A stretch of 64,000 bases of DNA from Tubulanus polymorphus. Lineage: Eukaryota; Animalia; Nemertea. Each line of letters begins with the position of its first letter. Position 1 is the stretch's first letter. Below, in pieces: positions 1 through 57,855 of the stretch. The stretch lies in assembly GCF_964204645.1 (NCBI RefSeq), contig NC_134034.1, forward strand, positions 4,624,914 to 4,688,913, written 5' to 3'. Both the position numbers and the translations under genes were made by a program. The notes under the pieces were generated by a model. The model did not search any database. It was not told the origin of the DNA and saw nothing but the letters and a program-made list of their open reading frames with translations.

Positions 1-65
1 TGTTTTAATGTTTGTAAGTCATTTGTTATGTCATTTGTCTTGATTTTTAGTATGTACGCAACCGT

Positions 66-1131
66 ATTGACTGCTATTAATGGAAATCCACAGTTAAATT
101 GTACCATCTTCAGTTGATAAATCATAAACATAAACTGATGGTTTGTATATTTTAAATAAATCCTTAACTTCTTCTGTTTACTCATTTTCTACATGACTTA
201 AATTAAAACAATTTGGTTTAGATTTAATCAATCCAATATTCATATTAAAACCTAATGAATTGCATAATATATTCAATCCTGATATAGCAATATTTCCTTT
301 TTGAGCTAAAGATATCGTTTTGCGGTTTTTGAAACTTTTTGAACCATCTGCAGCATAGAACCCAATGAAGAACCATTTTCTTAAATTATTTTTTGCATTT
401 AATACATAATCTGGAACTATCTTTTCTTTTGTTGAAGTATTACTTTTCACTATTGCATGAATATAGAATTCATCATTATATTTTATTGCAAAATCTTTAG
501 GATTATTTACAAGTATTCTATAAACTGCTGATGATTTCATAACATCCATGATTCTAAATGTTTTATGTGAATAAACTTCTTCACAGAATTTCTTAATTCT
601 TTCTAATAATTTTAAGTCTTGATTGCATAAATACCAACAATATTTATTACCCAAATCATAATTATACACACCTGCTGAACCATCACCCATGAAAAATCCT
701 TTGATAAAATATTCTTTTTCTTCTAATGTTTCGGGTTCTATATTATAAATATTATTAATAATTTCATCAAATGACATATGATTCATTCTTTGGAAAGATC
801 TTTTATGTAATAATTCATCTCAAATTTTTATATCAGTTGGTTTTATTTCATCGCCATTTCGTTTAATGAAACTATGATCTTCTGTAACATCTACAAACCC
901 TAATTTAGTTCTAACTCTATAGATTTTCTTATTTGTTTTATGCCTAATAATATTCTTTAATTTTTTCCATCCATTTCTTGTCCAAACATCCATTAATCCA
1001 TTTATTTGTATTAATTCTTTTTCACCATATGAAATATAACATTCATTTTGTTTTGGAATTATATCTGAAATTCTTCTTACCAATACTTTATCATTACATT
1101 TTAATAATATTGGGGTGTCAGCTGTAACAGA
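66..1131 (-). mobile_element. Intein with LAGLIDADG homing endonuclease in pPolB motif C (pol-c site), decayed
   Basis: Starts immediately after YFD with block A SVTADTPILL (1131). Block B is VDVTEDHSF, followed by KPTDIKI*DELL. LAGLIDADG blocks are FIKGFFMGDGS and FFIGFYAADGS. Block F is YVYDLSTEDGT-FNCG and block G is LIAVN (Asn codon 68-66), followed by +1 Thr and the polymerase continuation. Length 1066 nt = 355 codons + 1 inserted base; two in-frame stops (820-822, 178-180). Confidence 0.93.
178..786 (-). CDS. LAGLIDADG (DOD) homing endonuclease domain of the intein, in frame with the upstream intein N-terminal part
   Basis: Two dodecapeptide motifs (YFIKGFFMGDGS, FFIGFYAADGS), block D-like KIVPDYVL and block H-like GLNILCNSLGFN. 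Same frame as ORF 820-1587, separated only by one TGA. Confidence 0.88.
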   Translation of the reverse strand: MNHMSFDEIINNIYNIEPETLEEKEYFIKGFFMGDGSAGVYNYDLGNKYCWYLCNQDLKLLERIKKFCEEVYSHKTFRIMDVMKSSAVYRILVNNPKDFAIKYNDEFYIHAIVKSNTSTKEKIVPDYVLNAKNNLRKWFFIGFYAADGSKSFKNRKTISLAQKGNIAISGLNILCNSLGFNMNIGLIKSKPNCFNLSHVENE

Positions 1132-4100
1132 ATCAAAATATGATATTTCAATATGCTTTTCCCCAAAAAGTGGTTGTAAAACATTATAATAAAAATCATA
1201 CATTAATAATTTTGATACTTCTAAAACAGTTGAACCAATGAATATAGGTTTATTAAATTTCATTGACGTTCTTTTTAATTTAACTGCGGTTAAATAATCT
1301 TCAAATCTTTTATTTCCTAAATGCCTAGGACTTGATTGTAGGTGTCTTAATCTTTCAGAATTATTTTCTAATTCAATATCATTTCTATTTCTAATATTTT
1401 CACATGTTTTACCACAAAAACTATTGTTCATTAATTTGAAGAAATCTTTTTCAAAATCCGTTTTTGATATGGTTCTCTGTTGAGTATTAAAATCTATATA
1501 TTTTTCTAACCACTTCGATTGATTAAATTCAATATATCTATGTACTTTCTTTAATTTCATTCCTTGTTTTAGATAAAATTTTAACATTCTATAATGAACA
1601 ATATAATTGTAGTATAAATAAGTATTAATTTTTCTGTAAAAACATGATTTTTCGGTTTTATTTTCTTCTGGTATTCACTTAAATAACTATCATCTACAGT
1701 TAAATGTTCTGGGCAATAAGGTAAGTTTCTTGTTTTAAACTTTATATTTTCAGGATATTCTAAATCAACTACAAAGAAATAACCAATTGGTGCTTCATCT
1801 TCTAAACTCATAATTGCGCTTTCCCAATTAGTTTTATCATCATTTTCAACTTCTGTTAATATAAAATTTTTATATGGTTGAGGTTGCATCATTGCCCAAC
1901 CATATAAATTATTGGCATCAATATATAATAATTTATATTCATCATTTGCTTTAAAATACCTCCCATAACACCACTCATTCCACCTCTAATTGATTTTTCA
2001 AATAATAAAACCATATCTGGTTCTTTTAATAAATCTAATTCTACATTTGTATATTTTAAACCACATTGCCAGGTTAAACCAGGACTAGAGTAGCAATAAC
2101 AAGGATCAACATTAAAATGATTCAAATTAACTTCTCTAAATTTTTCAAATATGTCAGCCAATATCATAACATCTGATTTTAAATATGAATCAACTAATTC
2201 ACCATGATTTTTCATCTTAAAATGGTTCCAAATATTTAATGTTCTATTAAACACTTCGTCTTTCACATACTCCTCTTTTAATTGATCATAAAATTGATCT
2301 TTTAATAATTCTGTTACATTAAAATCATTGTGTGTTTTATAAAATGAATAAGGAATTGCGCCTTTATATCTCAATAATTTAAAATCTTGGTCATTTGGAT
2401 AATAATATCGAGTTATAACAAAATCATTATCAACTAAACTTTTTGATAAATTATCTAATGAACTTGCTAGAAATCTATAAGAATCTAAAAATCTAATGCA
2501 ACCAAATTGAAATGAAATATAATTTTCAGATATTTTAGCTAATAGTTTAAAATCATATTTTCTTACATTTACACCATGCATAGCATTATATTCTTCTATT
2601 TCTTGATTAATTGAACCCAATTTTCCTGATAATTGTTTTATAGATAGATGGGTATCATAGCCTGATAAATTATGAAATAATATTGGTACGAAATTAACTT
2701 TCTTAGCTTGTAAATTACAATCTTCATGAGCAGCTCCACGATATTTTGAATTTAAATGATCATGATCTCTAACTTTTTTATCAAATGAATAAAAACGTTT
2801 TTCACAATAACAACAATGAGTTGCATAATTAAAATCAATTTCATTTTGATTTGTCATAACTATTCTTTTATTTTTGTTTAATAATTTTGCAAAATCACTT
2901 TCTAATTCAATCATTTTGTTACAAAAATCATTAACTACATCTTCACCTCTAAAAGAAATATATTGACTTTCATATAATTCAGGATAATTTGACTTTATAT
3001 AAATTCCATAAGCAGCAGCTCTTTGATGAACTTTTTTAATTGTATTTATAATTGGTGGGTCTTGTATTGTGTCTTCATTTAATTCATTTCCTTTATCCAT
3101 TGATTTTAAAAATTGCTTTTGTTATATATTTCTTTTCTATCTTGATCAGTTAATTCTTTATTCAACGATTCAAAATCCCCATAAATTACAAATGGAACAA
3201 TATTCTTAAATTTATGATTAGTAAATTTCAATTTATAATCTTTTTCTGTTGGCATTATTAATTTACAAAAATCTTTATTATCACATAATTCTTTATGTTT
3301 TAATAATGTATTCTCAGTCATAAATTTAGATAAACATTTTCTAAATAGATAAATTTTACGATGATGATCACTTTCTGTTCTAAAGAATAAAGCAATTTGT
3401 TTTAACCACATATAATGTTCATTTTCATCTTTTTTTGTAATATAACAAATCTATAGCATTTTCATCATCATAATATTCTGTTTAATATAAAGCTTCCAAT
3501 GTATAATCTTTGATATTTTCACCTTTTGTCTTTGGTAATTGCATTAATTCGAATACATTTATTTTTAAATTATTAACTTTTTCTATTTTAGAAATCATTT
3601 TTATAGTTACTGGATATTGATCAATTTTATATAATGTTTCATATTTCCGGTAATTTGTTATTCTAAAACTATGTGTAATATCTTCCTTTGGATGTAAGCA
3701 ACTAATAATTGCCCACAGAAAACATTTATTATCTTCATTTTGAACATTTATTACTGCTTTTGTTGTAAATGGTAATTTAATATAAGATGATCCTTTAATA
3801 TCCTCCTTCTCTGTTGTAAAGTTTGAATCATTTTTAAACATTTTATTACTTTTTGATGTTTTATTTCTTTTTGTATTATAAACATTTAAATCTAAAAATA
3901 TAATTTCATTTAATGATAAACCAGAACCCTCAAAATATCTTTCTTCAATATGACGTTTAAAGTCATTAAATATTTTTTCTAACTTCTCTTTTATTTGCGT
4001 TTTTGAAATTATTTCTTCAGAGAGTGTTTGAATATTATAATCTATTTTCTCTTCTGACTTTAAAAAACTTACTTTCCCAGAGATACTAATTTTTGGATAT

Positions 4101-4689
4101 TCAACATCTGTTATCAAATCTAGTATTTTTTCTATTATTTCATTAAATTTACTATAATCTTCTATGATTGTACCTTTAAAAAATCTAAATATAATAGCTG
4201 CAGGACAAATTTTACTACGTAATGTTTCTAATATTTCAATTGTATCTTTTATTTCTAGTGAATCAATATAATTTCTAACATTTTCCATGTAAGGTTTATT
4301 TGAAATGGATTTAGTTTTTGAAGTTGGTTTTTTTACTTTTTGAGGTTTATCATCGAAATAATCTTTTCCAAAAACATTACTACTCAAATTTTGATGGTGT
4401 TTTTGTGATTCGAGATGTCTATTATAATTCCTTTTTACTATAAATTCATTACAAACTTCACATTTTATTTCATCCACATTCATATTTTCTGATCGTTCTT
4501 TTCTTTCATTGGAATTTTCTGAAGTTTCAAAATCTATAACATTTTTTATATGATTTGAAGATTTTTCATGACGCGATTTTTGAGATTTATCAATGTATTT
4601 TTTACAATATGGACAATAATATTGATTTTCATTAACATCAATTTGTTCTGTTTTATTCTCTCCCATTTATAAGGAAAAAAAATTACTTG

Positions 4690-4955
4690 TGGTGATGAGT
4701 GGGGTAACTTCCCCTTGTATATAACAAGCACGCTATTAACCGTTCTCACCCAAGCCTCACAGCATCTATTTATCCGGGTACAGTTGACACGCAATCACTG
4801 TACTACAGTAATAGCACACGCGTTAATAACCGTTCTCAGTAGCACCTCGCTGTATCGATCTATCCACGCGCAGTTGTTGTTAAGCGCACTCACTGTATAT
4901 GTGTATCACAGAGCAATCGTCCGTTCTCACTAGAGCCTAGCTGTGATGAGTGGTG
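4690..4955. repeat. Degenerate subterminal direct repeats of Polinton copy A
   Basis: CCGTTCTCA recurs at ~4740, ~4830 and ~4921; CAGTTG at ~4781 and ~4870; GTGATGAGTGG at ~4692 and ~4944. GC is higher than in the flanking element DNA. Confidence 0.55.
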
Positions 4956-5529
4956 TCTCGACCTCTCGACCTCTGGTATGAAACCCACATCTTCCAATTA
5001 CTAGTAGGGACAGACCAAATAAGCTGAGCACCAAGTTTTCTTTCAGATGACTAAATTGCATTGCAGTATTATCAGCAATAAATGAAGACGAATACGAATT
5101 AATCATAGGGGTCCCATATAAACCAATGTTATGAATTCATTTGATTGTGCAAAATTACATCCTTGCATGAGCTCTCCACATTTCAGGAAACATACGAGAA
5201 TAAGAACAATAACAAAATCAATTAGAAAGAACACTATTCTTTTAATTGTAAACTTAACAGGTATCAATTAACAGCCTTTTAAAATCAGCCTTATTCCCAA
5301 TAAAAACTGTACAGCATAAGATAACAAAGATAAATGTATTTTAAAAATCAACAAATGCTTAGAATTACATCCAAGTTGCTGCTGCAAAAGGTAGGGATAA
5401 TAACTTTCTGCTAAATTGATGGTTGAACCGCTTTCACTTTTAATATAAAGAATCTTACCCAATCCGCGAAACAGCAAGGCTCACACAGCGAGAATAACAG
5501 TAAAAACTTTTTTTTTTCTTTGTCTCGCA

Positions 5530-5762
5530 ATGTAGTCAAATTTTCTACACACGCAATCATGACTTGTTTGAAAGGTTCATAAGTTGTATGACACGTAGGC
5601 AGATATAACATATTTGCACAGGTACTGGCTGTCGGAAAGAAGGCACTGTACTCAGATGTGTCTTAAACAAGCTTAAATGCAATTAACAGTTCAGGTTCAA
5701 ATCCTAAAATTGGTACTTCCATCCTACCTGTGATAAATATTAGAAGTGATTCCCAGGAATTT
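5530..5762 (-). pseudogene. HECT E3 ubiquitin ligase C-lobe exon (G2E3-like) with one in-frame stop
   Basis: After a ttttacag acceptor it translates NSWESLLIFITGRMEVPILGFEPELLIAFKLV*DTSEYSAFFPTASTCANMLYLPTCHTTYEPFKQVM, with the HECT FITG..VP..GF motif and the catalytic PxxxTC motif. Confidence 0.7.
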
Positions 5763-6089
5763 CTGTAAAAATAAAGAAAATGTATTATTTTACGTGTCAG
5801 ATCAGTTGATATAGTCAGTTACAAGGTTTCTTAAATGTCCGTCCACCTTGGAATTTTGTGTTTGTATCACAACTGTACGATTATTGTGATTCGAAATGGT
5901 AAATAAAATTATCATTAATGCCCAGCTACCAATATAAATAGACAAATTGTTTACAAATCAAATATAAATCAACCCACTAGCGGTGAGAACAATAAAAAAC
6001 TGGGTAACCCCAATTCCACGTGAGGCAAATACTATTAGAATCTGCATGATATGTTTAAGATATCTTCCCAAAGAATACTCATGAATTTC

Positions 6090-17847: not shown

Positions 17848-19217
17848 ATGGCCACGTCTAAACTTCTAATTCTCGTAGTTGCGATATTACTGTGTCGCTG
17901 TGTTGCCATATCGGCAATTATTGATGAGATCGAACGAACGCCGTTGAGTTCAGAAAGTAATTTACTGGATTATCAGAAATACCGGTTACTTGGCGGTAGT
18001 TAGGTGCCGCATTCTGATTTCGTCGGCGACAAGCGGCGTCCAAACCGACGCGATTTAACTGTCAGACCCTTTTACTACGGCTGCAGGTCAGTGTCTCGCT
18101 GCGCTATTATAAACGCGGGTACGTCGAAATCCATTTTGATCCCTATTGCTGGGGCGGATTGATATTCTTATTCGCAGAAATGTAAAGCTCATGGGGCATC
18201 GTGTTAGTATACTGATAGAGTTTAGACTATCTTGTAGCGTTATTGAATCAGTTCACCATAAATCGCCTTGTAGCAGCGGTTTACGAACCGAGGAGAGAAA
18301 TTTCAATTTTAAAAAGGACATAACGAAACTGCGGAAGTTAAATCACTTAGTGATCTTATCTACGAGTCGTTTTCTTGTGCCTGAAGTCTTTCGATCTGTT
18401 ACCCAAATCTATGCTTGTTATCGGGATACGCAATCTCACAGGTGGTGCATTTAATATATATTTCGGCAGTAGGGCGTTTTACAAACTGTCTAGGCTGCGC
18501 CTTGTTGGGTTGATTGTTAGATTCTGCCCAAGTGATGTACTCCATCATATCCTGAGTAGAGTCCCTTCACTAGAATTACTAGATCTCTCACGAAATGGGA
18601 TAAGACATTTGGATAGAAACACGTTTGAAGCAACCCCTAACTTAAAGTTTTTGAGGATGCATTACACCATACTGTCCGTAATTCAACCAGGTCTTATAAA
18701 ACCACTGATAGATCTACACGTTTTTAATTTAGCATCGAATCAACTAAATACGATCGATCCGACTGAAATCTTGAATTTGAAACATTTTCGATACATTTTT
18801 CTTCTTGATAATATATTTGAATGCGATTGTCAACTTAGAAAGTTACAAAATTGGCTTAAAGAGTTAGAGTTAGATATTCATCGAACTAAAAAGCAATACT
18901 ATTACGACTTTGAGGCAGAAGCCCAACACGATTGGACCACGCTCAAACTTATATGTGCTTCACCAAAAAACTATCCGGTGTTCGTATCGCAAACTTTTAG
19001 TTATCTTGAATCGAATGTGACAATCAAAAAGATGTAATCATTTCTCTTTCGACTATATGCGTCACTTATAATTATCATTATGGCTATTGGGCGAATTGTT
19101 GCCAAAAAACGATGGTCAATTTATTAATGGTGGATGGTAAAAATCAATCGATTCCTACCGAAACTGTTATGTATAACAATGGAAAAACGTTCTGATAATA
19201 TGAAGTTTGACGGATTT
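17848..19217 (+). pseudogene. Toll-like receptor / LRR transmembrane receptor pseudogene, truncated at the start of the TIR
   Basis: Signal peptide MATSKLLILVVAILLCRCVA; LRRs (LELLDLSRNGIRHL, LHVFNLASNQLNTI); LRRCT (NIFECDCQL..LQNWL..CASP); hydrophobic TM then KKRW; KFDGF resembling TIR box 1. Several stops and frameshifts. Confidence 0.7.
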
Positions 19218-22287: not shown

Positions 22288-23082
22288 ATATTTTAGATTA
22301 TATCAATACATAAATTGTCGATTATAGAATTCTTTTAATTTGTAAATAGTGGGTTTTTATCTCATCACCTGTTCACCACGTTTAAGTGTGGTAATCGTAC
22401 TATAAGGTACCTTCTTTTATATATTCCAATAGGTGTAACATATAAGCTTCATAAGCTGGAGTTGGGAGGAAATGCATTTGAGAGGGATACGTTTCGTTAA
22501 GCGAAGTGATTGAAAACTCGATAATACAAATGATTGCCAAGAGGAAGGTTCTGGGAAGTTTTGAATTCTCTCTGGTGTTGCCCTCAAAACCCATGGTATG
22601 GTTTTCAGCTGCTTCGGTCCACTCTTACCCTCCGTAACGTACATAGCAAGCTTATTCTTGGTCGGTGAGTACTGGTCCGTTGATACATATGATTTTTCAG
22701 GTTCAGGAATGTGCCACTACCTTGTTTCCTCTGGTGGGAATTTTCGATCTGTTCGGATGTTCTACTACCAGATACTTCAATGAAATTGTTCAGGAATTAT
22801 ATTCATTTTGGTTAGGTCAATGCTATATTTCTTCGGGTATTTTTTTTCTAGTTATTTTTCACAACGTATGATTTTATAATTCGCTGATTCGTGTGTTGTG
22901 TTAGACATATGAGAATCGATCTTTAATTTGTGTCGAACAATAAATCTTATTAATGGATAATACGTAAGTTGTCATAACAAAGACTTTAACGTTATATTGA
23001 TCTTCCAATAATTCTTGTGCAATATTAGTCAGTCAATACACGCGGTGACACTCAGTACATTCTATTTCCAGCCTCATGAATC

Positions 23083-24039
23083 ATGAATTTAACTCAGATG
23101 CAGGTTCTTCGGACTTACAACAGCTATATCGCTCTTATGGCTGTGAAGAATAAGTCGGGAAAATACCGCACGGCGTTGCTGGTTTTTCTGCCTATCTTAT
23201 TTATGTTAGGAGCCTTTGGAAATACGGCCACATTCCTGATAATGATATGTCGCAGATTCCGATGTTTATCCTACGCCAATTATCTTATCGTTTTATCAGT
23301 CAATGATTTAGTGGTCTGTTTGAATTTCACTCTTATGCCTGTTTTACAGTTTGTTCTCTTGGACGTAAACATCGGTCCTATATACATGATGAATTCGCTG
23401 ATCAGTTGTCAAATCTATGAATTGGTAATGTTGTTTGCATCTTGCAACAGTTCGTGGTTAATCATAGCTATAACAGTGGAACGTGCTGCAGTTGTGCTCT
23501 TCCCATTCACTTCTCGATTGATATGTACACCAAAATTTGCTAGATTAGTTATATTGATCATCAATGCCGTGAATGCACTGACCTTATATCTAATACCAAT
23601 AGTGTCGATGCATTTTTCGGACAAGGTTTTTGGATGTTACTATGAGTTACTGAAACACCTTAAACATTTCGCAATATTTGTCGTCTATGTTTACACTGTG
23701 CCTTTGACTTTGATCATTACTTCTAATTCGGTTATAATCGTTCAATTGTTCAGAAGTTCAAAAATGATTTCGTCTGATAAGAAATCTACGAAATCAAAAC
23801 GTACAACAGTAATGCTTGTAACGGTTTCACTCGCATATGCAATTTTCACTCTACCTGCCACTATAATTGTTTACATACCAATCGGTGCGGAACAGAAAGA
23901 ATTTTTTCACGATGTCTTCACTAGGTTCCATGCTTGTAACTATGCTATGAATTTTTACATATATCTTTTATTGGGACGAGAGATACGTGATTTTTTCTGT
24001 ATAGAAATCGGCTGTCAAAATCAGTCGAATGATATATGA
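23083..24039 (+). CDS. Intronless rhodopsin-class GPCR (FMRFamide-receptor-like/putative chemoreceptor)
   Basis: Seven hydrophobic segments; GN in TM1, LSVND in TM2, ITVER..V.FPF (DRY equivalent), TLP in TM6, NYAMNFYIY in TM7. Confidence 0.9.
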   Translation: MNLTQMQVLRTYNSYIALMAVKNKSGKYRTALLVFLPILFMLGAFGNTATFLIMICRRFRCLSYANYLIVLSVNDLVVCLNFTLMPVLQFVLLDVNIGPIYMMNSLISCQIYELVMLFASCNSSWLIIAITVERAAVVLFPFTSRLICTPKFARLVILIINAVNALTLYLIPIVSMHFSDKVFGCYYELLKHLKHFAIFVVYVYTVPLTLIITSNSVIIVQLFRSSKMISSDKKSTKSKRTTVMLVTVSLAYAIFTLPATIIVYIPIGAEQKEFFHDVFTRFHACNYAMNFYIYLLLGREIRDFFCIEIGCQNQSNDI

Positions 24040-24514: not shown

Positions 24515-26049
24515 TCTGAAAATTACTTCCCGTGCCTCTTTCTATCGAGCTGCGCGTATTAATACTTTTCTCAGCGAAAATGTTGGAACCAACCCGCAGG
24601 TTTTTACCTGTTCTGGAGTTGAGCCGACCGACCCTTACACCTCGCTTGAGTATAACGCTACCCTGCGTTTGGACTCTTACCGATTGATTAAGGAATTTTC
24701 AGGAAACATTGCTTTTACGTGCAAAGCCTCGTTATACCATTCGCCAAATGCCAGTGAGACCGAAAGACCCTATCCTGTCCGAATTAATGTGGGATAGTCT
24801 ACAACTTTAAATGGGCTAGTGAATCTTCACAAAAATGCGGTCACTCGCACGTTTGCGAAATCGAACGCTCAGTATAGGCACGGTTCATGGAGTAATCAGA
24901 CTGAATCAGACTCAAAGCTCTAATTTCGAGGTATCCCAGCACCGTCACTCAGACTATAAAGAGTACTTGATAGACAATAAATACATTCCCGTAACTCGTC
25001 AGGAGACCAGACTGGTTCAATAGAGGAGTCGGGGAAGCCATAAAGATCATAAAGATCCGCTGTCCCACCCTGAACTGAGATGGCTCTCGATACCAGCTCC
25101 CAACCTTTGGGACAATTTACACGTACGTATGCATGTGCATGCGTACCCGGTACTTAATTGTCAAAGGTCCATGGATTTGGATTGAATGCTCATAGTTAAT
25201 TTTCAACAAGATTGTCTATTGTCAACGTTTAGAAAATCCAACTCGATTGATTCACATACACATCAGATGGATTTATTTTAATTTCCGAGTGTATGTAGGC
25301 CTACTCTCTTTAGTAAAGAATCAGGTCTCTGCCAATCCTGTCTATTCGTATGTGAATTATTTTTGCACGTGTTTAGAGTGGTCTGTGTATGGAAATAAAG
25401 TTATACTCCGCTCGCGAAAACTTCAACACGGGTAGCTCAACCCCATCGTTTAGCTTGATAATTATGGATCCTGGATGAATAACAATAGCTATAATTCAAC
25501 ACCATTTCCTGGCATCATCATAAAGCTATAATTGCCCGCAATTTCCTTGCACCATGCAGTTAAATTCACAAAATCATCCATGTGATGTGTATAGGAAAAT
25601 TTTGAATATTTCAGTGAGCATGGTTTACTCTCAAACTTTATCTAAAATGCCTTGAAAATTTAGAATGACATTTCATTGGTAGGGAGATTTATTTTAGTCG
25701 AATAATTAGGGTTTTCTGACTTTCGTCGAAAGCCCTCTTGTAATTCTGTTGATTATTATTATTATTTACATATTTTCCACTTTTTTTCATCACATAAAAT
25801 TCATCTTCTCTCGGATTTGACAACTAACAGCTACTGTACGGAATGTTGAATTCTGATAGCTAAATATAACAGACTTTCTCTCCGCGTAGATTCTATCAAT
25901 GCACTCTCCATCCTATTTTAAACTTAAAAGTACTTTCAGACAGCTAACACCGGCGGAAATATACTACGCCGGTGATCGGCTATCCGTATGTCCCTTCAGG
26001 TGTTCCGCGCTCCTGCATACGGTATACCTGAATGCGCCGATGAAACAAT

Positions 26050-27805
26050 AAACCATTTTACAGTTGCTAGCCGCCATTTTGTTAGGGTACTTTTGTCCCG
26101 TATTGTTGGGTCGTTTTTTTCTCTTTTTAAAAACTATCCGTGATGTGTGTTGTATCATATTTCATCTGTCCATGGATGGATTTTGACACTTTCAGCAACA
26201 TTCAAACCGCATAAATCTCTAGTTTTCAGTTATGTAAGAATCATTTTTCAAATTTGCAACAATGCGACATGAGAGCGATATAAAAATTGGCAGTCTGTTT
26301 TTTCCGTGCGCATAGAAATCAAGGGTACTGAAATTTGAAGTTCGTTATTTTCAGAAACAATTTTCTAAAAAATCCAAGCATTTCAAGAAATGTGCGCATA
26401 AATGCCCTCTTTCAGGTGAACTTTGAAATGTTAAGATATCTTGCCTAGTTTTTTTCCTATGGTACTTTACCTGCAGCGCATGTATTGTCATTCCGAGATT
26501 CGGCGCTGTTTCCTTTGTGTGTATTTCAGTATATGGGTGTTATTTTTTTCATTTTTACTACACTTGTCTCTACGGAAAATGGTTTTAATTGTTGGTACGA
26601 GTATCAGGTTTAAATATTACGGCATTAATACTGTATTCCGTTTTCTGGCGCTAGTTCGTAATGGCTGTATTGGTAGCCGCTTTTACAGCAGGCAGAGGCT
26701 TACGTACATGCACCCAAGAAAACCCAAAATATCACTCTTTTGTTGTAAATGCAATCCACACACTTCTTGCGTTTTTGTGATGGTAGATGTCACTTTTTAC
26801 TTTTAATCACCTGTGTCTGACATTAGGACTTGATACTTGATATTTCACCACCAAAGCAAGAAAACGTTTTCCTATATATTCTTCCCGAGCTAATCAATCT
26901 TGTGTGTACTTAATAGAAAGTATTCATAGAAAGTAGCTGAATATTTGCCCCACCCCATTTGTCCAGCTTTTTGACCACTTCTCCATCCATCTAATTTCAG
27001 TAGATTTTTATGTAAATTAATTGATAGACTACTGATTTAAATGGTCATCATACTCGATTTTGAGTGTTATATTTCTTTTCTTCTTCCATCTCAATATAGG
27101 CAGTATATATTCTCTTCCCGCGCGCAACTTCGAATACGTGATCTAAATGCCGCACAGTCTCGCTGCTAAAACTGGTCAAAAAAATCCCTTAAACTCCAAC
27201 ATCTCTAATGTCTTCGATCTATTATTGCATAAATGACGTAATATTAAAACCTGATACTCGTACCAACAATTAAAACCATTTTCCGTAGAGACAAGTGTAG
27301 TAAAAATGAAAAATAACACCCATATACTGAAATACACGCAAAGAAAACAGCGCCGAATCTTGGAATGACAATACACGCGCTGCAGTTAAAGAGCCATAGG
27401 AAAAAAACTAGGCAAGATATCTTAAAATTTCAAAATTCACCTGAAAGGAGGCGTTTATGCGCACAGTTCTTGAAATGTTTGGATTTTTTAGAAAATTATT
27501 TCTGAAAATAACGAACTTCAAAGTTCAGTACCCTTGATTTCTATGCGCACGAAAAAAACTGACCGCCAATTTTTATATCGCTCTCATGTCGCATTGTTGC
27601 AAATTTAAAAAATGATTTTTACATAACTGAAAACTAGAGATTTATGCGGTTTGAATGTTGCTGAAACTGTCAAAATCCATCCATGGACAGATGAAATATG
27701 ATACAACACACATCACGGATAGTTTTTAAAAAAGAGAAAAAATGACCCAACAATACGGGACAAAGTACCCTAACAAAATGGCGGCTAGCAACTGTAAAAT
27801 GGTTT
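26050..27805. mobile_element. Non-autonomous fold-back DNA transposon with ~575-bp TIRs, flanked by AT (ISL2EU/Harbinger-type)
   Basis: 26050-~26625 is a near-exact reverse complement of ~27232-27805; AT|AAACC...GGTTT|AT. Confidence 0.85.
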
Positions 27806-28213
27806 ATTATACGTCCGATGAATGCTCCGATATCGGGTCCGAGTCAAAGAGTTTACGAGGCCGGCGTTCGCGAGTCCGACAGGTTTACAGGCATTTGTTT
27901 GTTGTTACATATTTTATATTATTGATTTCCTGTTATTCCGGTTATTTTATTTAAATATATTGCTGATCTGTTCATGTAAACAAAAGCACCAATAAATACA
28001 TTTTGAATTGATCAAGTTTAAATCAACAAGGTCGTTGAGTCGCGGGTGGCTACTAGAATTACGGCAAGTTTTACGTTCGACTACATTCAGAGAGAAAAGG
28101 AACAACAGAAAAGTATCAGATGATTATCGATAGCCTACTAATACGGAACACACAGACTGTTGACAAACAGTGTTAGGCCTGTGTCGGTTGGTGCGTACTG
28201 GGACTAAAATATA

Positions 28214-39102: not shown

Positions 39103-40658
39103 TCACAAAACATAGCCAAATATTAGTCCGATATATAAAAATACATGGTTTATAAACTTTTGTCTTTGCCTAGTCCTTGTACCTCCTGGTTTCGTATACA
39201 CACTGGTGTAGGCTCTGTCAACATTTTCATTCCAGTGACAGACAGCTAAATTCGATCGCATTAGATATTGTTGGTCAGAGAACGATATGCGTTTATCTTG
39301 AAATAAGTTCATCACATTATTGAAGCTTTCCACATAAAAAGAATCTCTGCCCGAGACAAAACATTCAGGGTGTAAATACATATATGTCGACTTGATTAGC
39401 TTATTAAGAAGGTTTTCGGCAACAGGAGAGGTTATCACTACTCTTGATGGTTCATAATTTGCGTCAATTTTGCAACGAGATTGTGGATGACAGGAGTCGT
39501 GTTGATTTTTATAATGACAAATTATATTGTCCAAGTAGTCCAATAGTGTTTTTTCATTTTGGTTGCAATTTCGAACTGCCCATTGAATGTGCGTCCCAAT
39601 TGGTTGAGCCTTATCGTGTAGTTGTTCATGCCAGGTTTTTCCATGATGTTTTTTAGCACCTTTTCCTATTTTATCTAATTTTCTCACTATATTTTTTATC
39701 TCGTGCCAGGTATCGTTTTGGTTGATGGATCCCTGATCTCTAACAAACTTGTTGATCGTGGCACTGTTGTCATGACAGTGGATTCTAATTTCTAAGTCCT
39801 CGTTATCTTCAGTAGATCTCAGATATGAATATATCCGTTCGGTCCCAAGGCGTTCGTGTCGTTGGCTTACATCATCATCAGCCTTGGTGACATGTTCACA
39901 TCTGATAACTTTATGTGATTTTTCACCCACTGCCACAACGCTAGCCTCTTTAGCATTTTTTCGCCAGCCATGCCTTGCATCAGTCATGATGTCTATAGCG
40001 CCCGGCACTTCATAACATGCAATTTCTTCGAGTAGCGCCTGTCTTATACTGTTGTCCTGTTCTTCCTGGACACTCAGCTGGTAGAGGGATTGTAATTAAG
40101 CCAGCCTTTCGCGAGAGAGCTTCCCAATTCCACTACCGTCAACTAATCTGTGGTATGCACTAGCTATAATGCCGGATGAGAAGTACCCGTGAGCAATTCG
40201 GGCATTCACAAGAAATTCCCCATTTGGAAGGTATGATGACGATTTCCATACAAATGAATGAGCTTTCCTCTTCCAATTACAGTTCAAATGTACACGTGCG
40301 ACATGTCCATGGTAATAGACCTTCTTTACGGACACCTTACTTTCACAGAAATGACCACGTTTCCCGGCCATCTCAACCAACTTCGTCAGTGCGGATTCAC
40401 ATGTCACAAATATCTTCTGATTGACGCTACTTTTATCGGTGGACACATAATTAGTAACATTCATCTCGATAGTTTCTGGAGAATTTTTCGTCAACCAACA
40501 ATCCAGAAGATTCTCCATTATCACAGCATTGTTAATTGAAGTCATAGAACTTTTCATCAATGATTCCCGAACTTTTTTGATTTTCTGTAGAATTGACGTT
40601 TTAATACTTTCATCTCCAGGAATCTCAAAAAGGATAAGCGTTTACGTGTCGTGCTCAT
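39103..40658 (-). pseudogene. Kolobok DDE transposase (one in-frame stop at 40096-40098; 5' end frameshifted)
   Basis: ORFs 40096-40560 and 39103-40008 share a frame; MTDARHGW, IHCHDN, NDTWH, H..N.H..C, SFYVESFNN, A..HWNENV.R. Confidence 0.8.
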
Positions 40659-42970: not shown

Positions 42971-43576
42971 CGGAAGGATGTGTTATGATGTTTTCCTACC
43001 TCCGTTATTATCATTAGTCAATCAAATCAGCAATTCAACTTATAATGAAAAAAAAACAGCGGCCTAAAGCTCATAAAATAAAATCGACGGATTGCGTGAC
43101 CCTGAGTGATCTCAAGTAACCTAATTATCCGATGCACCTCGTAAGCTTTCCCCATTCGATTATCAACGCGCTGAAATAGTTTGCACGACGGGCACAGAAG
43201 AAGAAATGTAAGCGCTTGTATATATCCGACAAACATATTCTATATGCTATATTTTCCTTGAATTTCAAATACATATCCAACGATATGACAAATTGAATGT
43301 AGGCATATATAACTCAATTTAGACAATTATCTCAATGGCCGTGTTACACAAAATACGATAAAACTATTATGCGAATTCTCGACGAATCTAATTCAATAAT
43401 AACACATTATTGTATTCACAGAGAACACTGGATTGATTCAGTTATACTTTATAGCTGAGTATACCCAAGATACCATTATTCATCTGCTGTTCATCTACTT
43501 GAACGAAGCCTGTTAGATCAAAACTTTAACAGGAACAAGTCTTTCTTGTACACGAGTCATATACTACTAAACCAAA

Positions 43577-46940: not shown

Positions 46941-48048
46941 AGTAATAGGGTAAGTGTCTTTTCATACCAGAGGTCGAAAGGTCGAGCTCATAAAAAATAT
47001 ATTCTCACACGCTCGAATTTCACTCAACCTTTCAACCTCTGATATGAAACAGCACACCCTATGACTCTAATAATATTCATATATATGAACATGGATATTA
47101 TATTAATGAAATCACTTTTAATAAAAAATATGTATAATAAATGGAGAATAAACAAATATACTCAGAATTCCCAGCTAGAATTAAAGATACTACAAATGTC
47201 AAATCTGTAGATTATACATTCAAAAAGTTAACAGAATTCACATAACATGAGAAATATTTAACAAATATTGTAACAATTACTAATAGATATGGTAATAAAT
47301 TAGTTATTCACTTAGAATATGAAGGATAAAAAGGAAATAGTTATAAATTTAGAACATATTTACCTGATAAATTTCATAGATTATCTATGAAGATCTAGAA
47401 GAAGTGTGTTCTGGTGATTTATATTTCATATATAAGGGTAAGGATAAAAAAGGATGTCATGATATTGATTTCGAATAATATAAAAAGATATGTAAATAAA
47501 TGGTAGAATTAAAAGAATATAGAATATTTGTTGATTCAAGAAGACTTACAAATTATAAATCTCATAATTCATTGATACAACTAGATAGAGAATTCAGAAA
47601 TTGTGTTGATTTAAATTAGTAAATTTTAGTTTATGTAACTCATTTTACAATATATCGTATAAAACTATTGAACATAGAGCCTTTTGAATTTTTGATAAAA
47701 ATTAAAACGAATGGTTCTATATATATTTAAAACCAGGGTTATATAATTTAGATACATTATCACAACAAATTAATAGAAAAGCCTGGCACAAATTAGGTAG
47801 TGATTCCGGGTTTAATATTAGTTTTTAAAAAAGTGATAGTTCTGATAAAATAAAGATAAGGTTATCTCATAGTGAAAAACATAAATTTATGGCAAAAAAC
47901 CTATAGCTAAACTGTTAGGAATTCCTACAAATCTTTTACAAATATTGATGCTACACCAAACTTAATACCTTACACACATTATTATATCTATTGCAATTTA
48001 ATTGATCCTACAAAAACATTTGAAGCAACTAAAGATACAACTTGTAAT
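46941..48048 (+). mobile_element. Polinton copy C: internally deleted derivative (terminal palindrome joined directly to small-ORF and penton region, no pPolB)
   Basis: Terminus AGTAATAGGG...TTCATACCAGAGGTCGAAAGGTCGAG; palindrome 46941-47066; ~47110-48048 aligns to copy B ~55830-56781. Cut by the ISL2EU insertion. Confidence 0.85.
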
Positions 48049-51134: not shown

Positions 51135-51316
51135 TTAAGCATTTCTTGAAACGATACATTCTCTAAAGTTACACAGGTAGCAACAGACTGTCATAATTTC
51201 TGTAGGCAGGGGTATTTCATTATTACTCAATGGATGTGTGAGTATTTTGTATGTTTTGGCTAGTCCTATAAGTCGTTCGATGTGCACTCTTTTGCTGGCA
51301 ATTTTCCTGTCACATT
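51135..51316 (-). pseudogene. C-terminus of ISL2EU DDE transposase, truncated by Polinton copy B
   Basis: CDRKIASKRVHIERLIGLAKTYKIL...VCCYLCNFRECIV* (RVHIER carries the catalytic Glu). Not in the ORF track. Confidence 0.8.
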
Positions 51317-51322
51317 AGTAGT

Positions 51323-51716
51323 AGTAATAGGGGTTTAGTTGTTTCAAGCCAAAGGTCGAACGGTCGAGTTCATTAAAAACAAAACATTAAAAGTAATTTA
51401 GAACTATAATATATTTTCATAACCGTGTACATTTTATATTAAAACTAAATATTTATTCTAAGATATCAATAATTTTAAAAGCATATTGTATTAAATCAAT
51501 TGGTCGCTCCACTTCGCTACCGCTCCGCTCCGCGACCAATTGATTTATTTACAATACACACATTCATATAATCAAATATATTCAAATAATAATAATATTC
51601 AACTGAAATACACACGGTTATGAAAATATATTATAGTTTTAAATTACTTTTAATATTTGTTATTAATGAACTCGACCATTCAACCTTTAACCTGAAACAA
51701 CTAAACCCCTATTACT
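51323..51716. repeat. 394-bp imperfect terminal palindrome of copy B
   Basis: AGTAATAGGGGTTTAGTTGTTTCA...CTATAATATATTTTCATAACCGTGT...AAATCAATTGGTCGC / GCGACCAATTGATTT...ACACGGTTATGAAAATATATTATAG...TGAAACAACTAAACCCCTATTACT; centre ~51519. Confidence 0.92.
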
Positions 51717-51797
51717 CTTAAATTATTCATATATATGAATAAAATATAAATGAATAACTTCTAAAATCAATTTAAAAAAAAAAATTTTAGTATTAAA

Positions 51798-54700
51798 ATG
51801 GAAGCAAATAAGTACTATCAATATAGATAAATCCCAAAAAGCAAGACACAATAAAACTAAAACACATTTAGAGAATAAATTGAAACTAGAATATAAAGAT
51901 GATATATTAGAAACTAAATTAGAAGAATTAAAGAATGAAAAAGAAACATATAAATGTGATACATGTAATCAATCATTCAGTGATAAAAGATATTATAATG
52001 AACATTTAAAATCTAAAAGTCATATTAGAAATAAGAATAATGATATTTTAGGTGAAGATTATTTTGATGAAGATAATGATAAGAAACAGAAGACAATTAA
52101 AAACATAAAAAATAAATTAAACAATAAAAGACCATACATGGAAGATGTAAGAAATTATATTAATTCATTAGATAATAAAAAAGATATAGAGATAACCGAA
52201 GCATTTAAAAGTGATATTGGCCCAGCAGCTATCGAGTTTAAATTTCATAAAGGAAAAACATTAGATGAAAATAAAAAACATTTAGAAAATATAAGAAATA
52301 AAGAAATAATAAAGATAATAACTGATGTTGAATACCCTAAAATTAGTATATCAGTTAAAGTAAAGTTTATAAAGTCTGAAGATAAACCAATATATAATAT
52401 AAATTCTCATTCACAACATATCTTATATAAACAACATATAGATGATAAATTAGATAAATGTTATAATGAAGTAAAAACTAAAATAGAAGAGAAATATTTT
52501 GAAGGATCTGGTTTAATATTTGATGAAATAATATTTATGACTTTACATGTTTATAACACAAAATATAATAAGTTAACTAAATCAATACCAATAGATGAAA
52601 ATAATGTATCATATTATAAAGAACCAGATATTGAAGCATCGAGTTATATTAAACTACCATTTAAAACTAATGCTGTAATAAATGTACAAAATGTTGATGA
52701 TAAATGTTTTCTATGGGCTATAATAAGTTGTTTACACCCAGTTGAAGATTATAAACAACATAGTTTTAGATTAACTCATTATAAACCATTTGAAAATAAT
52801 TATAAGATAGATAAGTATCCTGTTATAATTAAAAACGTCCCAAAAATAGAAAGAGATAATAATCTAAAAAATAAATGTATTTGATTTAATCAAATTACCA
52901 AATACAAAAGGTAACAATATAAAACATTATACATTAGAACCTTTATACCTATCAAAAGATTAGGATTCAAACGATGTTATAGATATACTATATTATGAGA
53001 ATCATTATATGTGGATTAAAAGAATTGATTTATTTTTTAAATCAGAAAATGATTTTGATAATAAAATATATCTATGTAGAAAATGTATAACTAAATTCAG
53101 AACTGAAAGTGCATTATTAAATCATAAACAATTATGTGAAAATCATGATTATTGTAAATTAGTTTTACCAAATGAAAAGGATAAAATATTAGAATTCAAA
53201 AAATATGATTATAAAAATAAAGTACCATTTGTAACATATGGAGATTTGGAATCATTAAATAAAGAATTAACTGATCAAGATAGAAAAGAAATATATTATA
53301 AAAGAAAGAAATTAAATTCTAATGAAAATGATTTTTCATATGAACCACCAAAAACAAATACTATTAAAAAGATTCATCAGTCAGCTGCTGCTTTCGGGTT
53401 ATATATAAAATCTGATTATCCAGAACTAATTGAAAGTGAATATTATGATTATAGAAATGAAAATGTTATCAATCATTTTTGTGACTTATTCATTGAATAT
53501 GAAATAAGATTTAGTATATTATTGAATACAAATATAGAAATTATAATGACAGAAGAAGATAAAGAAGAATTTGCGTTTGCAGATAAATGTTATTATTGTG
53601 AAAAGATATTTAATTATAAAGATAAAAAAGTAAGAGACCATGATCATTTGAACGGAAAGTTTAGAGGCGCTGCACATGAGAATTGTAACTTACAAGCTAA
53701 GAAAATTAATTTTGTACCAGTTATATTTCATAATCTATCAGGATATGATGCACATTTATTCATCAAACAGTTATGCCATAAAATAGAAGAAATTAATAAT
53801 GAAATAGAAAGATTAAATTAAAATAGGTCAAAAGATAAAATACCAAATAATAAATTTAGAATGTTAGCTAAAACTTCTGAGAATTATATATCGTTCCAAT
53901 TTGGTTGCCTAAGATTTATAGATTCATATAGATTTTTAAATAGTTCATTAGATAACTTATCAAAATCATTAGTTGATGATGAATTAAAAATATTAAAGCA
54001 ACACTACCCAAATAATGATGATTTTCAATTAATGAGATATAAAGGCGCAATTCCATATTCATTTTATAAATCACATAATGATTTCAAAATAACTGAATTA
54101 TTAAAAGAACAATTCTATGATGAATTAAAAAATGAATATGTTAAAGATGAAATCTATAATAGAACATTGAATATTTGGAATCATTTTGGAATGAAAAATC
54201 ATGGACAATTAGTAGATTTATATTTAAAATCAGATGTATTATTATTAACCGATATATTCGAAAGGTTTAGAGATGTAAACCTAAAATATTTTAATATTGA
54301 TCCTTGTCATTGTTATTCATCACCAGGTTTAACATGGGATTGTGGATTAAAATTTACAGATATAAAAATGGATTTGTTAACAAATATATATCAATTACTA
54401 TTATTTGAAAAATCTATAAGAGGAGGAGTTTCAGGTGTATTAGGTGATAGATATTTCAATGTAAATGATAACCCTGGATATAAGTTATTATATATAGATG
54501 CAAATAATCTATATGGTTGGGCAATGATGGAACCACAACCTTATGGAGTATTTGAATTAACTGAAGTTTTACAGAATGAAAATAATGATAAATTTGATTG
54601 GAAGAAAAGAATCCTAGATATTGCAGATGATTCAGATACTGGTTACTTTTTTGTTGTAGATTTAGAATATCCTGAAGATAAAAAATTTAAATCTAGAAAT

Positions 54701-55831
54701 CTAGCATACTGTCCCGAACATAAAACTGTAACTCATGAAGAACTATCAAATTATCAAAAAAGAATTAAACCCGAAAATCATATTCATACAGAAAAGTTAA
54801 AAGTAACTCAAGAAGATAAATATAATTATGTAGTGCATTATAGAATGTTAAAGTTTTATCTAAAACAAGGGATGGTTCTAAAAAAAGTACATAGATATAT
54901 TTCATTTAGTCAATCTAAGTGGTTAGAAAAATATATAGATTTTAACACCAAACAGAGAACTGAAGCTAAAACTGATTTCGAGAAAGATTTCTTCAAGTTA
55001 ATGAATAATGCATTCTATGGTAAGACTTGTGAAAATATTAGAAATAGAAATGATATTGAGTTAGTCAGTAATGGTAAAAGAATTGGACATTTACAATCAT
55101 ATCCTAAGTTTTTAGGTAACAGAATATTTGATGAAAATTTAGCTGCAGTTGAAATGAGAAGAACATCAATGAAATTTAATAAACCAATCTATGTTGGCGC
55201 TTCAGTTTTAGAAATATCAAAATTACTAATGTATGAATTCTATTATAATGTATTACAACCACTTTTTGGAGAAAAACATATAGAAATACTATATTTTGAT
55301 ACAGATTCTTACATATTAAAGATAAAAACTGATAACATAACAGATGATTTAAAAATATTAAAACATCATTTTGATTTTAGTAACTATCCTAAAGATCATG
55401 AATTGTTTAGCAATGATAATAAAAAAGTTCCTGGTAAATTCAAAGATGAATTAGGCGGTGAAGAAATGATTGAATTCATTGCTATTAGATCTAAAATGTA
55501 TTCATATAAAACTAAAGAACATGAAGCTAAAAAGTTAAAAGGAATAACCAAAAGTGTAGTAGAAAAGAATATTCTTTTCAAAGATTACATCAATTGTATA
55601 TTCAATGAAGAAGTTAGAAAACATAAAATGAGATGTTTAAGATCTGAAGATCATGAAATGTTTATTGAAGAAATTGAAAAGATAAGTCTAAACCCATTTG
55701 ATGATAAAAGATATATTTTAGATGATGGAATTCATACAGTTGCTTATGGATGTAATTTAGATGAATACTTAAAATTTAAAAGAGAAGAAACAAAAGTAAA
55801 CGAGATAATGAAAAGAATTCTAACGTGTTAA
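51798..55831 (+). pseudogene. polB: Intein-free protein-primed DNA polymerase B with zinc fingers and endonuclease VII-like domain (small 5' deletion, +1 frameshift at ~52870, TAA at 53819)
   Basis: ORFs 51880-52884, 53009-53821 and 53861-55831: TYGDLES, RDHDH..RGAAH..CNL, HNLSGYD, YLKSDV, YIDANNLYG (motif A), KLMNNAFYGK (B), YFDTDS (C), PGKFKDE, RSKMY, KGI, DDKR. Confidence 0.95.
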
Positions 55832-55927
55832 TCAAATTTTAATAAAAATATGTTATTAAAATGGAGAGTAAACAAGCGCACAGTGAGAACAACAAATCAT
55901 TTCTAGATAGAATAAAAGATACTTCAA

Positions 55928-56209
55928 ATGTCAATAGATTATAAATTCAAAAAGTTAACAGAATTAACAATCCATAAGAAATATCTAATTACAGATATTG
56001 TTACAGTTACTAATAACTATGGAGATAAATTAGTTATACACTTAGAATATGAAGGATTAAAAGGAAATACATATAAATTCAGAACATATTTACCAGATAG
56101 ATTTCATAGATTATCAAGTGAAGACTTAGAAGAATTATGTTCTGGAGATTTCTATTTCGTATACAAAGGTAAGAATGAAAAGGGGCACCATGAAATAGAT
56201 TTCGAATAA
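55928..56209 (+). CDS. Small conserved Polinton protein (possible OB-fold ssDNA-binding protein); homolog in copy C ~47200-47478
   Basis: Open 93-aa ORF conserved between copies (FKKLTE..Y.I..YG.KLVIHLEYEG..FRTYLPD.F..Y.G). The fold is inferred only. Confidence 0.6.
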   Translation: MSIDYKFKKLTELTIHKKYLITDIVTVTNNYGDKLVIHLEYEGLKGNTYKFRTYLPDRFHRLSSEDLEELCSGDFYFVYKGKNEKGHHEIDFE

Positions 56210-56226
56210 GAAAATATGTAAAATAA

Positions 56227-56985
56227 ATGGTGGAATTAAAAGAATACAGAATATTTGTTGATTCAAGAAAACTTACTAATTATAAATCTCATAATTTATT
56301 AGTACAATTAGATAGAGAATATAAAAATTGCGTAAATTTAAAATTAGTTAATATAAGTTTATGTAATTCTTTTTACAATATATCGAATAAAACTATTGAA
56401 CATAATACTTTTTTAATTCATATCAGAAATATAAATAAATGGTTTCATCTATTTTTAAAACCAGGATTATATAATTTAGAAACATTAGCACAAGAAATTA
56501 ACAGAAGAGCACGGTTGAAAATTAGAAAAGATGATAAATTTTTAATATGATTTATAAAAAGTGATAGCACAAATAAAATTAAAATAAAGGTATATGATGA
56601 AAGTCAACATGCATTTATAGTAAAAAAACCATTAGCTAAATTGCTAGGAATTGCACCAGATGTTGTTACAGTAAACGTAGAAGGCATTTCAAATATAATA
56701 CCTTTTACGCACTTTTATATTTATTGCAATTTAATTGATCCTACAAAAACATTTGAAGCAACTAAAGATACAATTTGTAATTCTAGTATATTAAATATTT
56801 TACCATTAAAGAATGTTAAACAATTTGGAACTCAAATAAATTATAATTTAACAGAATGTGATTTCAAACCTTGCATTCCTCAATTTAATAATTTTAAATT
56901 AGAAATAAGAAATCATAATGGATATTTAATTGATTTGAATAACTTTCCTGTGATATATGAATTAGTTATAAGATGTAGAGAGTAA
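56227..56985 (+). pseudogene. Minor capsid (penton-like single jelly-roll) protein, one in-frame TGA at 56548-56550
   Basis: ORFs 56227-56550 and 56641-56985 share a frame with no other stop; IFVDSR, NSFYNI, PGLYN..L, LLGI, YIYCNLI, ILNILPL..FG, LEIRN..LIDLNN. Confidence 0.75.
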
Positions 56986-57001
56986 TTTTTTCATTATATA
57001 A

Positions 57002-57358
57002 ATGAATATAACTGTTGGACCGAGTATATGTTTTGGGTTTGATTTTAAACGTGAGAAAGAAATGAAATTTAACGTTAATGATGTAATTACACATATTAAA
57101 AATATTGCATTTTCTAATGAAACAACATTTGAGTATGAAACAACAATAGATAAAGAAACTTTAAATGTAGAAAAGATTACTAATTTAATTAGAGAATCTT
57201 TAAGATTTTATGAATTAGATGAAGATTTCATTATTGATGATATTAAAAGAATAATAACTGAAATATATGAAAATGAAACTAATAATACCATAAATGTTGA
57301 AATAATTATAACTAAGATAAATGAATATTTTGAAGATAGTAATTTTTTTGATAAATAA
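57002..57358 (+). CDS. Hypothetical acidic protein of copy B
   Basis: Open 118-aa ORF tightly packed between neighbours, with the element's TAAATG start context. Confidence 0.55.
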   Translation: MNITVGPSICFGFDFKREKEMKFNVNDVITHIKNIAFSNETTFEYETTIDKETLNVEKITNLIRESLRFYELDEDFIIDDIKRIITEIYENETNNTINVEIIITKINEYFEDSNFFDK

Positions 57359-57580
57359 ATGAGTGATAATAAGTGGATGATAACTGGATTATATAATGGA
57401 GCATTACTATCAGTTGGAACTGTTGGTTATTCAATGGAATTAAAAAAAGTATTTAAAATGGGAAGTGTTAATGTTGATAGATTTGATATAAATGATATTT
57501 TAAAGTTAACATTAGCAGTTACTTTATCTAATTTAACTATTGATTATTTGGAAAAACAAAAATATATTCCTCCCATATAA
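57359..57580 (+). CDS. Small hydrophobic Polinton protein
   Basis: 73 aa with two hydrophobic segments and a DYLEKQKYIP end; abuts the previous stop. Confidence 0.65.
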   Translation: MSDNKWMITGLYNGALLSVGTVGYSMELKKVFKMGSVNVDRFDINDILKLTLAVTLSNLTIDYLEKQKYIPPI

Positions 57581-57604
57581 ATGCATAATTATTTTGCTAA
57601 ATAA

Positions 57605-57855
57605 ATGGCTTCTGCAATTATAACTATTATAGGATCGGCATTTGTTAACGCTTTGGCATTTACTGGTGGTGGTAATTTATTTAAGCATATTGATAAAAAT
57701 AGTTCATTAGGGAAACAAAGAAGACATAACTTATCGTTAGAAAAATATAATAAAGCAGCAGAAGAATATAGAGAAAAGAGACAAAATTATATGGATTATA
57801 TTAATAAGGAATTATATAATTAGAACATTTCACACCGAGATTTTCAATCAGTCGA
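57605..57855 (+). CDS. Small Polinton protein with a Gly/Ala-rich hydrophobic N-terminus plus coiled coil (premature TAG at 57821-57823 likely)
   Basis: MASAIITIIGSAFVNALAFTGG..LF...RRHN..LEKY...EKRQ..DYIN resembles a recurrent small gene of invertebrate Polintons (recognised from memory). Confidence 0.6.

Follow-up and report, generated by a model that had tools for sequence, protein, structure and literature searches.

In the available text of published surveys, the inteins recorded for eukaryotes are those of fungi, algae, and protists and of large DNA viruses, with animals contributing only intein-like Hint domains; PMC5784728 lists fungal nuclei, algal plastids, and large DNA viruses. 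Among the viral cases is the Mimivirus PolB intein (R322), which, in the accessible part of its report, has 351 aa, Ser1, a terminal Asn, and a +1 Thr (PMC549080). Viral-like polymerase inteins have also been reported from nuclear scaffolds of the green algae Klebsormidium and Tetrabaena and of one labyrinthulomycete, together with inteins of Anaeramoeba, in the sections available of a paper whose main text does not contain the words Polinton, Maverick, animal, or metazoa (PMC10710043). In Polinton/Maverick elements, the accessible text of a survey of about 22,000 protein-primed PolBs (pPolBs) describes inserted HNH or VSR nuclease domains (10.1101/2023.08.22.554363), and a paper citing that survey suggests, in its available part, that nuclease inserts in pPolBs result from intein invasions (PMC11071308). 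Neither "intein" nor "Hint" occurs in the survey, "intein" does not occur in PMC8502044, PMC11131425, or 10.64898/2026.10.13.758929, and the parts available of PMC12220804 and PMC13768754 mention inteins only in general terms. Our searches of the main texts of the open-access literature yielded no account of an intein with a Hint domain in any pPolB or any animal DNA, and the first-pass annotation of this DNA likewise knew of none.

Here, we describe an insert in a polymerase gene in a 64,000-nucleotide stretch of Tubulanus polymorphus DNA (the window). We consider it roughly 80% probable that it is an intein in motif C of a Polinton-type pPolB, present in tens of animal-genome copies, whose intact copies are predicted to self-splice and have likely spread by cutting empty polymerase genes. 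Like the motif-C PolB inteins of Nucleocytoviricota, it is about 350 aa long, with Ser1, the block B Thr/His, two LAGLIDADG motifs, a terminal Asn, a +1 Thr, and the D/TD position; unlike them, it has a protein-primed PF03175 host, belongs to an integrated, multi-copy element of an animal genome, and forms its own intein branch. The closest precedent, from the accessible sections of PMC10710043, shares virus-borne polymerase inteins in a eukaryotic nucleus with viruses as the proposed carriers, but its hosts are algae and protists. The HNH and VSR inserts share the element class and polymerase family, but the available survey text describes them as nuclease domains, whereas the window insert carries a full splicing domain and splits a catalytic motif. 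With the fungal nuclear homing inteins (VMA1/PI-SceI, PRP8), as far as the accessible accounts of these go, the window intein shares the Hint and LAGLIDADG architecture and fold and the nuclear location; those occupy single-copy host genes, whereas this one sits in a multi-copy mobile element. The intein class is thus a known one, the host protein class and host kingdom are ones for which we found no report, and relatives carry apparent signs of homing.

Table 1. Coordinates of the intein, its host gene and element end, and the intein-free element in the window.
Feature	Position	Strand	Description
C-extein start	1..65	minus	+1 Thr, YILKIKT; polymerase gene continues beyond window edge
Intein	66..1131	minus	Two-motif LAGLIDADG endonuclease flanked by the two parts of a Hint splicing domain; two stops and one frameshift in this copy
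C-terminal Hint part	66..177	minus	Block F (VYDLST), frameshift near 95-100, block G with final Asn
Open stretch with both LAGLIDADG motifs	181..819	minus	FIKGFFMGDG and FFIGFYAADG, Asp in each; PF14528 30.5 bits
N-terminal Hint part	823..1131	minus	Ser1 (SVTADTP) and block B (TEDH); TIGR01445 at residues 2-89
N-extein	1132..4666	minus	Protein-primed PolB: N-terminal zinc finger, Endonuclease_7-like insert (below cut-off), PF03175
Element end	4667..5005		Subterminal, high-depth, short repeats; depth drops to host level near 4983-5002
Second Polinton-type element, intein-free	51316..57850	plus	Palindromic left end; approximate boundaries

The insert is 1,066 nt long, that is, the 355 codons at YFD/T claimed in the first-pass annotation plus one base. 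In minus-strand translation, ...HIEISYFD in the polymerase frame is followed by SVTADTP starting at base 1131. In-frame stops lie at 820-822 and 178-180 and, past the frameshift, the other frame reads NCGFPLIAVN to base 66, followed by Thr and YILKIKT. Six-frame translation recovered the intein blocks and the two LAGLIDADG motifs noted at first pass, and the C-terminal region is broken by a stop and a frameshift (178-180; near 95-100), as had been proposed. The return of the polymerase at YILKIKT had been placed in register with an intein-free paralog, and this too is borne out: the motif-C region of the paralog reads HIEILYFDTDSYILKIKT, without the insert, so the junctions of the window insert are in register, and the C-extein in the window shares 50 of 65 bases with the paralog.

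The insert carries Ser1, the block B TxxH, the block F Asp, the terminal Asn, and the +1 Thr. For profile searches, it was translated with X at the stops. The profile check proposed at first pass gave a mixed outcome: LAGLIDADG_3 scored above its threshold (28.4 bits; cut-off 22.5), whereas Pfam Intein_splicing reached 29.5 bits (E 7.7e-7), under its 35.8 cut-off. TIGR01445 intein_Nterm scored 30.8 bits (cut-off 24.5), and the archaeal split intein half NEQ068, from the motif-C site, was a weak profile match (E 6.4e-4). At the level of sequence, the insert is confirmed as a class 1 intein with a LAGLIDADG endonuclease in motif C (YFD/T) of a pPolB. Its position after the first Asp of the D-T-D motif, together with its kinship to same-site inteins, makes it a PolB motif-C allelic intein, at the site named pol-c. 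The penultimate residue is Val in the window copy, compared with His in 10, Lys in two, and Ser in one of 13 relatives; penultimate His is common in inteins and not obligatory, and Lys or Ser occurs in many viral-type relatives. The residue following the +1 Thr differs in the window copy from the usual Asp. Because of the two stops, the frameshift, and the broken polymerase gene, the window copy is dead: no precursor can be made from it.

Upstream of the intein, the polymerase gene of the window copy is in at least five frame pieces. PF03175 scores 37.9 bits in this copy and 49.0 bits in the paralog (cut-off 25.8), and the N-extein shares 73% DNA identity with the paralog across 3.3 kb. The paralog gene (51754-55831) also contains stops and has its empty site, YFD/TDS, at 55300/55301; the second element to which it belongs has a 400-bp palindrome at its left end (51323-51716). 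Terminal inverted repeats and a 6-bp target duplication characterize Polinton/Maverick elements; the other end of the intein-bearing copy lies outside the window, and AGT-repeat-like ends at about 5003 and 51316 would fit a Polinton/Maverick end motif. The host of the intein is a Polinton-type, protein-primed PF03175 polymerase in a multi-copy element with a defined end. The integrating virus suggested at first pass rests on the pPolB type and by multi-site integration (see below), but the part of the intein-bearing copy inside the window yielded no capsid, integrase, or packaging gene; a Pfam scan of the 21 window ORFs found no integrase, packaging ATPase, or major or minor capsid protein, and the copy exceeds the window. 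By its motifs, ORF 56227-56982 is a candidate for a minor capsid protein, and other ORFs downstream of the paralog pPolB may likewise encode small virion-module proteins. A third, internally deleted piece on the plus strand (47022-48048) consists of ~100 bp like 51670-51764 fused to ~930 bp like 55837-56781, with 74-79% identity to the second element.

With the X-read insert as query, we obtained 283 matches; the best five among the 120 listed are pPolB-type proteins (45-59% identity), followed by PF00136 PolBs at 29-39% identity to the window insert, the range also found for relatives at YGD/S...N/TDS. The window insert is 59% identical to that of the open-frame pPolB precursor P0002 (343 aa, E 6e-129). 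The search for intact copies recommended at first pass succeeded in public assemblies, the source of seven open-frame precursors of 1,085-1,693 aa that join a pPolB to an intein (P0002, P0003, P0005, P0139, P0167, P0168, and P0378), whereas this species gave only read differences at single breaks. Further pPolB inteins were found by profile searches. Both LAGLIDADG Asp residues and block F are present in 14/14 pPolB inteins examined, the N/T terminus is present in 13/13 relatives, and full length together with both Asp is retained in 14/14 members, down to about 40% identity. The residues before the site are YFD, YGD, YMD, YLD, YSD, ASD, or SSD. Pfam Intein_splicing scored above cut-off for P0003 only, below it for the window, P0002, P0005, and P0167, and did not match P0139. 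The predicted structure of the P0002 insert (mean pLDDT 77.4; a model of this relative and not of the window's own sequence) best matches 7qsu (E 1.8e-15) and also matches 7qst, 7qss, PI-PkoII, PI-PfuI, and PI-SceI. For this relative, the model predicts that a Hint fold surrounds a LAGLIDADG endonuclease of two domains, in which both catalytic Asp are present.

Searches of viral and metagenomic data added more distant loci. The window endonuclease stretch found no related loci on viral contigs. With the P0002 insert as query, 37 loci were found in viral contigs and 80 in metagenomes; full-length identity did not exceed 42%, and the contig of P0002 itself was absent from these. In the 50%-representative search, pPolB extein matches were 0 of 121 new among the 150 listed of 3,326, and filled (intein-bearing) alleles were probably hidden behind empty representatives; a 190-aa fragment 59% like the P0003 intein (P0424) was among the 150 listed. 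Members of the P0003 family were found on contigs between 57 kb and 1 Mb in length, and several other relatives on contigs of 2.5-13 kb. One intein-bearing pPolB, P0166, comes from a 2.5-kb contig that NCBI files in the MAG of a clam symbiont; it gave no match in GTDB genomes, and its place in that bin is likely to be host carry-over. A search of phage records also gave no match.

The pPolB inteins form one side of an SH-aLRT 100 branch in three trees, of which they make up 12 of 60 rows, 9 of 40 (mixture model), and 9 of 62. These trees are quick searches with SH-aLRT support only, on a set composed without archaeal or named Mimivirus inteins; the 60-row tree holds inteins of 320-375 aa, with near-duplicates removed and viral-type rows thinned at 62% identity (60 of 139). 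When the tree is rooted on inteins of another PolB site, a group with support of 99 unites the pPolB inteins with 17 viral-type motif-C inteins, and the former lie within it. The midpoint root of the mixture-model tree lies between the pPolB and viral groups, so the direction of transfer depends on the outgroup. Related IMG/VR loci are largely labelled GVMAG, and the viral-contig loci checked all read YGD/SV (11/11). Altogether, relatives and trees support the kinship of the pPolB intein to giant-virus-type PolB motif-C inteins that the first-pass annotation had proposed.

The separate intein and extein trees recommended there were also built. The extein tree broadly mirrors the deep intein branches, apart from P0005, with empty alleles intermixed. 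P0003 groups with P0004/P0155/P0156, P0006 groups with P0166-P0168, and the window groups with P0002, the last in the intein tree and left unsettled by the extein tree. Mirrored trees with intermixed empty alleles suggest long residence with loss and re-invasion. Long residence had been argued at first pass from AT-richness, which is a weak argument; the matching deep branches speak for it instead. The window insert has 25.1% GC and the extein 23.4%, but values range over 20-36% among 11 related inteins from viral contigs, and we rejected GC content as a sign of long residence. In P0005 (PF03175, 110.9 bits), the intein is 45% identical and lies inside the pPolB intein clade, but the extein is unalignable to other pPolBs (best stretch 21%), from which we infer one jump between pPolB classes. 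P0005 also has an insert that we take to be VSR-like, for which a Pfam scan gave no match.

The first-pass annotation had placed the element in animal germline DNA; residence in an animal genome is supported by GPCR ORFs, read depth, and unlike flanks. Three intronless 7tm_1 (rhodopsin-family) GPCR ORFs score above cut-off in the window (23080-24039, 43571-44596, and 60264-61355), and one of them has ten listed Atlas clusters, every one of which is commonest in animal phyla; these genes indicate an animal host. Four contig runs of "organism A" contain 44-48% of the words sampled from the element, and one of them may be its source; no RNA run was among the holders listed. In X6, a raw-read DNA run of another study that carries this species label (about 12% of reads used), summed depth is 111-262 over the intein (82% likeness) versus 3-6 in the host flank at 5209-5859 (88% likeness). 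Depth over the element is 20-85 times flank depth, so this species holds tens of intein-bearing copies. The element end near 5000 is passed by 503 reads into mutually unlike flanks (agreement 0.36), as many integration sites would produce. Among the read and contig rows listed, none bridged the window copy's own junction by at least 31 bases on each side, and the overlap of one flank contig with the element is only 29 bases long.

Most reads differ from the window at its breaks (235/247 and 159/161 at the stops, 90/111 at the frameshift), so the breaks are largely private to the window copy, although short reads cover single breaks and not the whole frame of any one copy. Of the reads at the N-side junction, 256 span base 1126, which belongs to the intein, and 118 depart from the window sequence exactly at 1132; by eye, 29 of 30 bases of their continuation equal the empty site of the paralog. 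The T. polymorphus genome therefore holds filled and empty sites, the empty ones seen being those of the paralogous subfamily. The joints listed for X6 included none in which reads of the window's own subfamily skip the intein.

The intein is wider than one relic: it occurs in several pPolB families, with filled and empty alleles. Two polymerase families hold both kinds in near-identical backgrounds. Between the filled P0139 and the empty P0142, the N-exteins agree at 571 of 577 residues and the C-exteins at all 169; the pair would reflect precise insertion or loss. In the P0003 cluster (15 members listed of 136), 13 span the site, seven filled and six empty. When three filled alleles of this family are compared with three empty ones, 51-53 of 55 upstream residues and 43-46 of 50 downstream residues agree, but in the patch around the site only 9 of 15 do. 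The same three filled alleles share 15 of 15 residues around the site with the sister-family P0156, and only 45 of 55 and 34-35 of 50 outside this patch. The flank swap of ~15 residues fits import with flank co-conversion, the pattern that homing would leave; as an alternative or additional reading, it also fits escape from cleavage by the empty alleles. The empty alleles of this family comprise three types, mutually different in the same patch, which are possibly homing-resistant alleles. Three empty-site types, one of them with Cys at +1, are seen in P0128, P0130, P0131, P0132, P0134, and P0135, in backgrounds ~97% identical.

By the standard chemistry of class 1 inteins (acyl shift, +1 attack, and Asn cyclization), Ser1 and the block B Thr/His would drive an N-O acyl shift, the +1 Thr would attack, and the terminal Asn would cyclize, which would restore the D-T-D motif. 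An unspliced polymerase, missing its active site, would be unable to work, and therefore every self-replicating filled copy would select for splicing. The freed endonuclease would then cut sister elements at their empty site, and a filled copy, used as the repair template, would pass on the intein with a short flank. Splicing and DNA cleavage are predicted from sequence for all members. We envisage that the lineage was derived once from a Nucleocytoviricota PolB intein, whose YGD/TDS site resembles the pPolB site, and that it persisted over a long time in pPolBs of the Endonuclease_7-type clade, where it was gained and lost repeatedly, and jumped at least once to another pPolB class; the window copy, a dead insertion, would have been in decay ever since. 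The further proposal that the giant-virus-derived intein acts as a homing gene drive on germline Polintons, converting empty copies, being escaped through patch swaps, and having crossed two deep pPolB classes, is tentative, and we give it a little under an even chance.

The identity of the insert faces two challenges. A chimeric or contaminated assembly, with the element coming from a protist, alga, or giant virus, might seem favored by the GC content of the element (23-25%, versus 37.6% in host DNA), by nearest non-pPolB relatives on viral contigs, and by the window copy's junction not being formally bridged by reads. It is nonetheless very improbable: reads from another study under this species label cover the element at a depth 20-85 times that of the flank, 503 of them enter unlike flanks, the window contains, among its host genes, a related element as well as a deleted fragment, and the extein is PF03175 and not a giant-virus PolB. 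Still less credible is a non-splicing insert, either a Hint-like or domesticated domain or a nuclease insert such as HNH or VSR, retained in the mature polymerase. Inserted nuclease domains do occur in pPolBs, according to the available survey text (10.1101/2023.08.22.554363), and the penultimate residue of the window copy is Val; but here motif C is split between catalytic residues, Ser1, blocks B and F, the terminal Asn, and the +1 Thr are all present, the P0002 model has a fold like full inteins, and the insert is precisely absent from empty alleles.

Two other readings concern homing and leave the intein in place. Splicing may have been kept and homing lost in this species, with vertical inheritance in one subfamily and an empty subfamily that is resistant or merely has an unrelated target site. 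The empty-site reads match the 73%-identical paralog and not the window's own subfamily, and the deep intein and extein branches agree, both in favor of this reading. Homing endonucleases without selection are expected to decay, however, and both endonuclease Asp and full length are kept in 14/14 members; near-identical filled and empty backgrounds in two other families also speak against loss, which we regard as possible but doubtful. Alternatively, homing may take place between free, replicating linear genomes (a virus stage, in co-infection), with chromosomal copies merely recording it. Jumps from giant-virus-type PolB and into the P0005 class require shared cells, and several relatives sit on 2.5-13 kb contigs. 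On the other hand, the filled and empty P0003-family alleles lie on 57 kb-1 Mb contigs, consistent with integrated copies, and no virion genes were found for the window copy, which exceeds the window. We think this reading unlikely; it would change the site of the mechanism and not the identity of the insert. Fungal nuclear inteins home at meiosis, and the germline homing drive proposed above would, if true, make these the first splicing-competent, mobile inteins in animal nuclear DNA.

The preferred reading of a motif-C intein in multi-copy Polinton-type elements supplies a route into animal nuclear DNA, in which an integrating element carries the intein. A classic intein site is thereby extended to protein-primed polymerases, and past contact of giant viruses with Polintons has left a trace in the sequence. 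Since filled, empty, and flank-swapped alleles occur in one family, homing and resistance can be tested by copy comparison, without crosses. For annotation, a 350-residue motif-C insert splits or inflates pPolB alignments and ORF calls.

Related inteins were also seen in other proteins. Residues 267-620 of P0020/P0150 are a motif-C-type intein at GGD/TDT in an ADP-ribosylglycohydrolase (PF03747), a similar D/TD site, and this intein groups with the viral-type PolB inteins. Type II topoisomerase-like proteins carry related inteins at DQD/TDG or DAD/TDG (P0091, P0104, P0110, P0111, P0119, P0120, and P0157), which form their own branch in the tree. The window itself further contains YqaJ/alkaline exonuclease-like, weak Mutator-like, and LRR ORFs (50351-50932, 39103-40095, and 18354-19037, respectively) and a 580-bp inverted repeat pair with 95% identity at 26047-27808.
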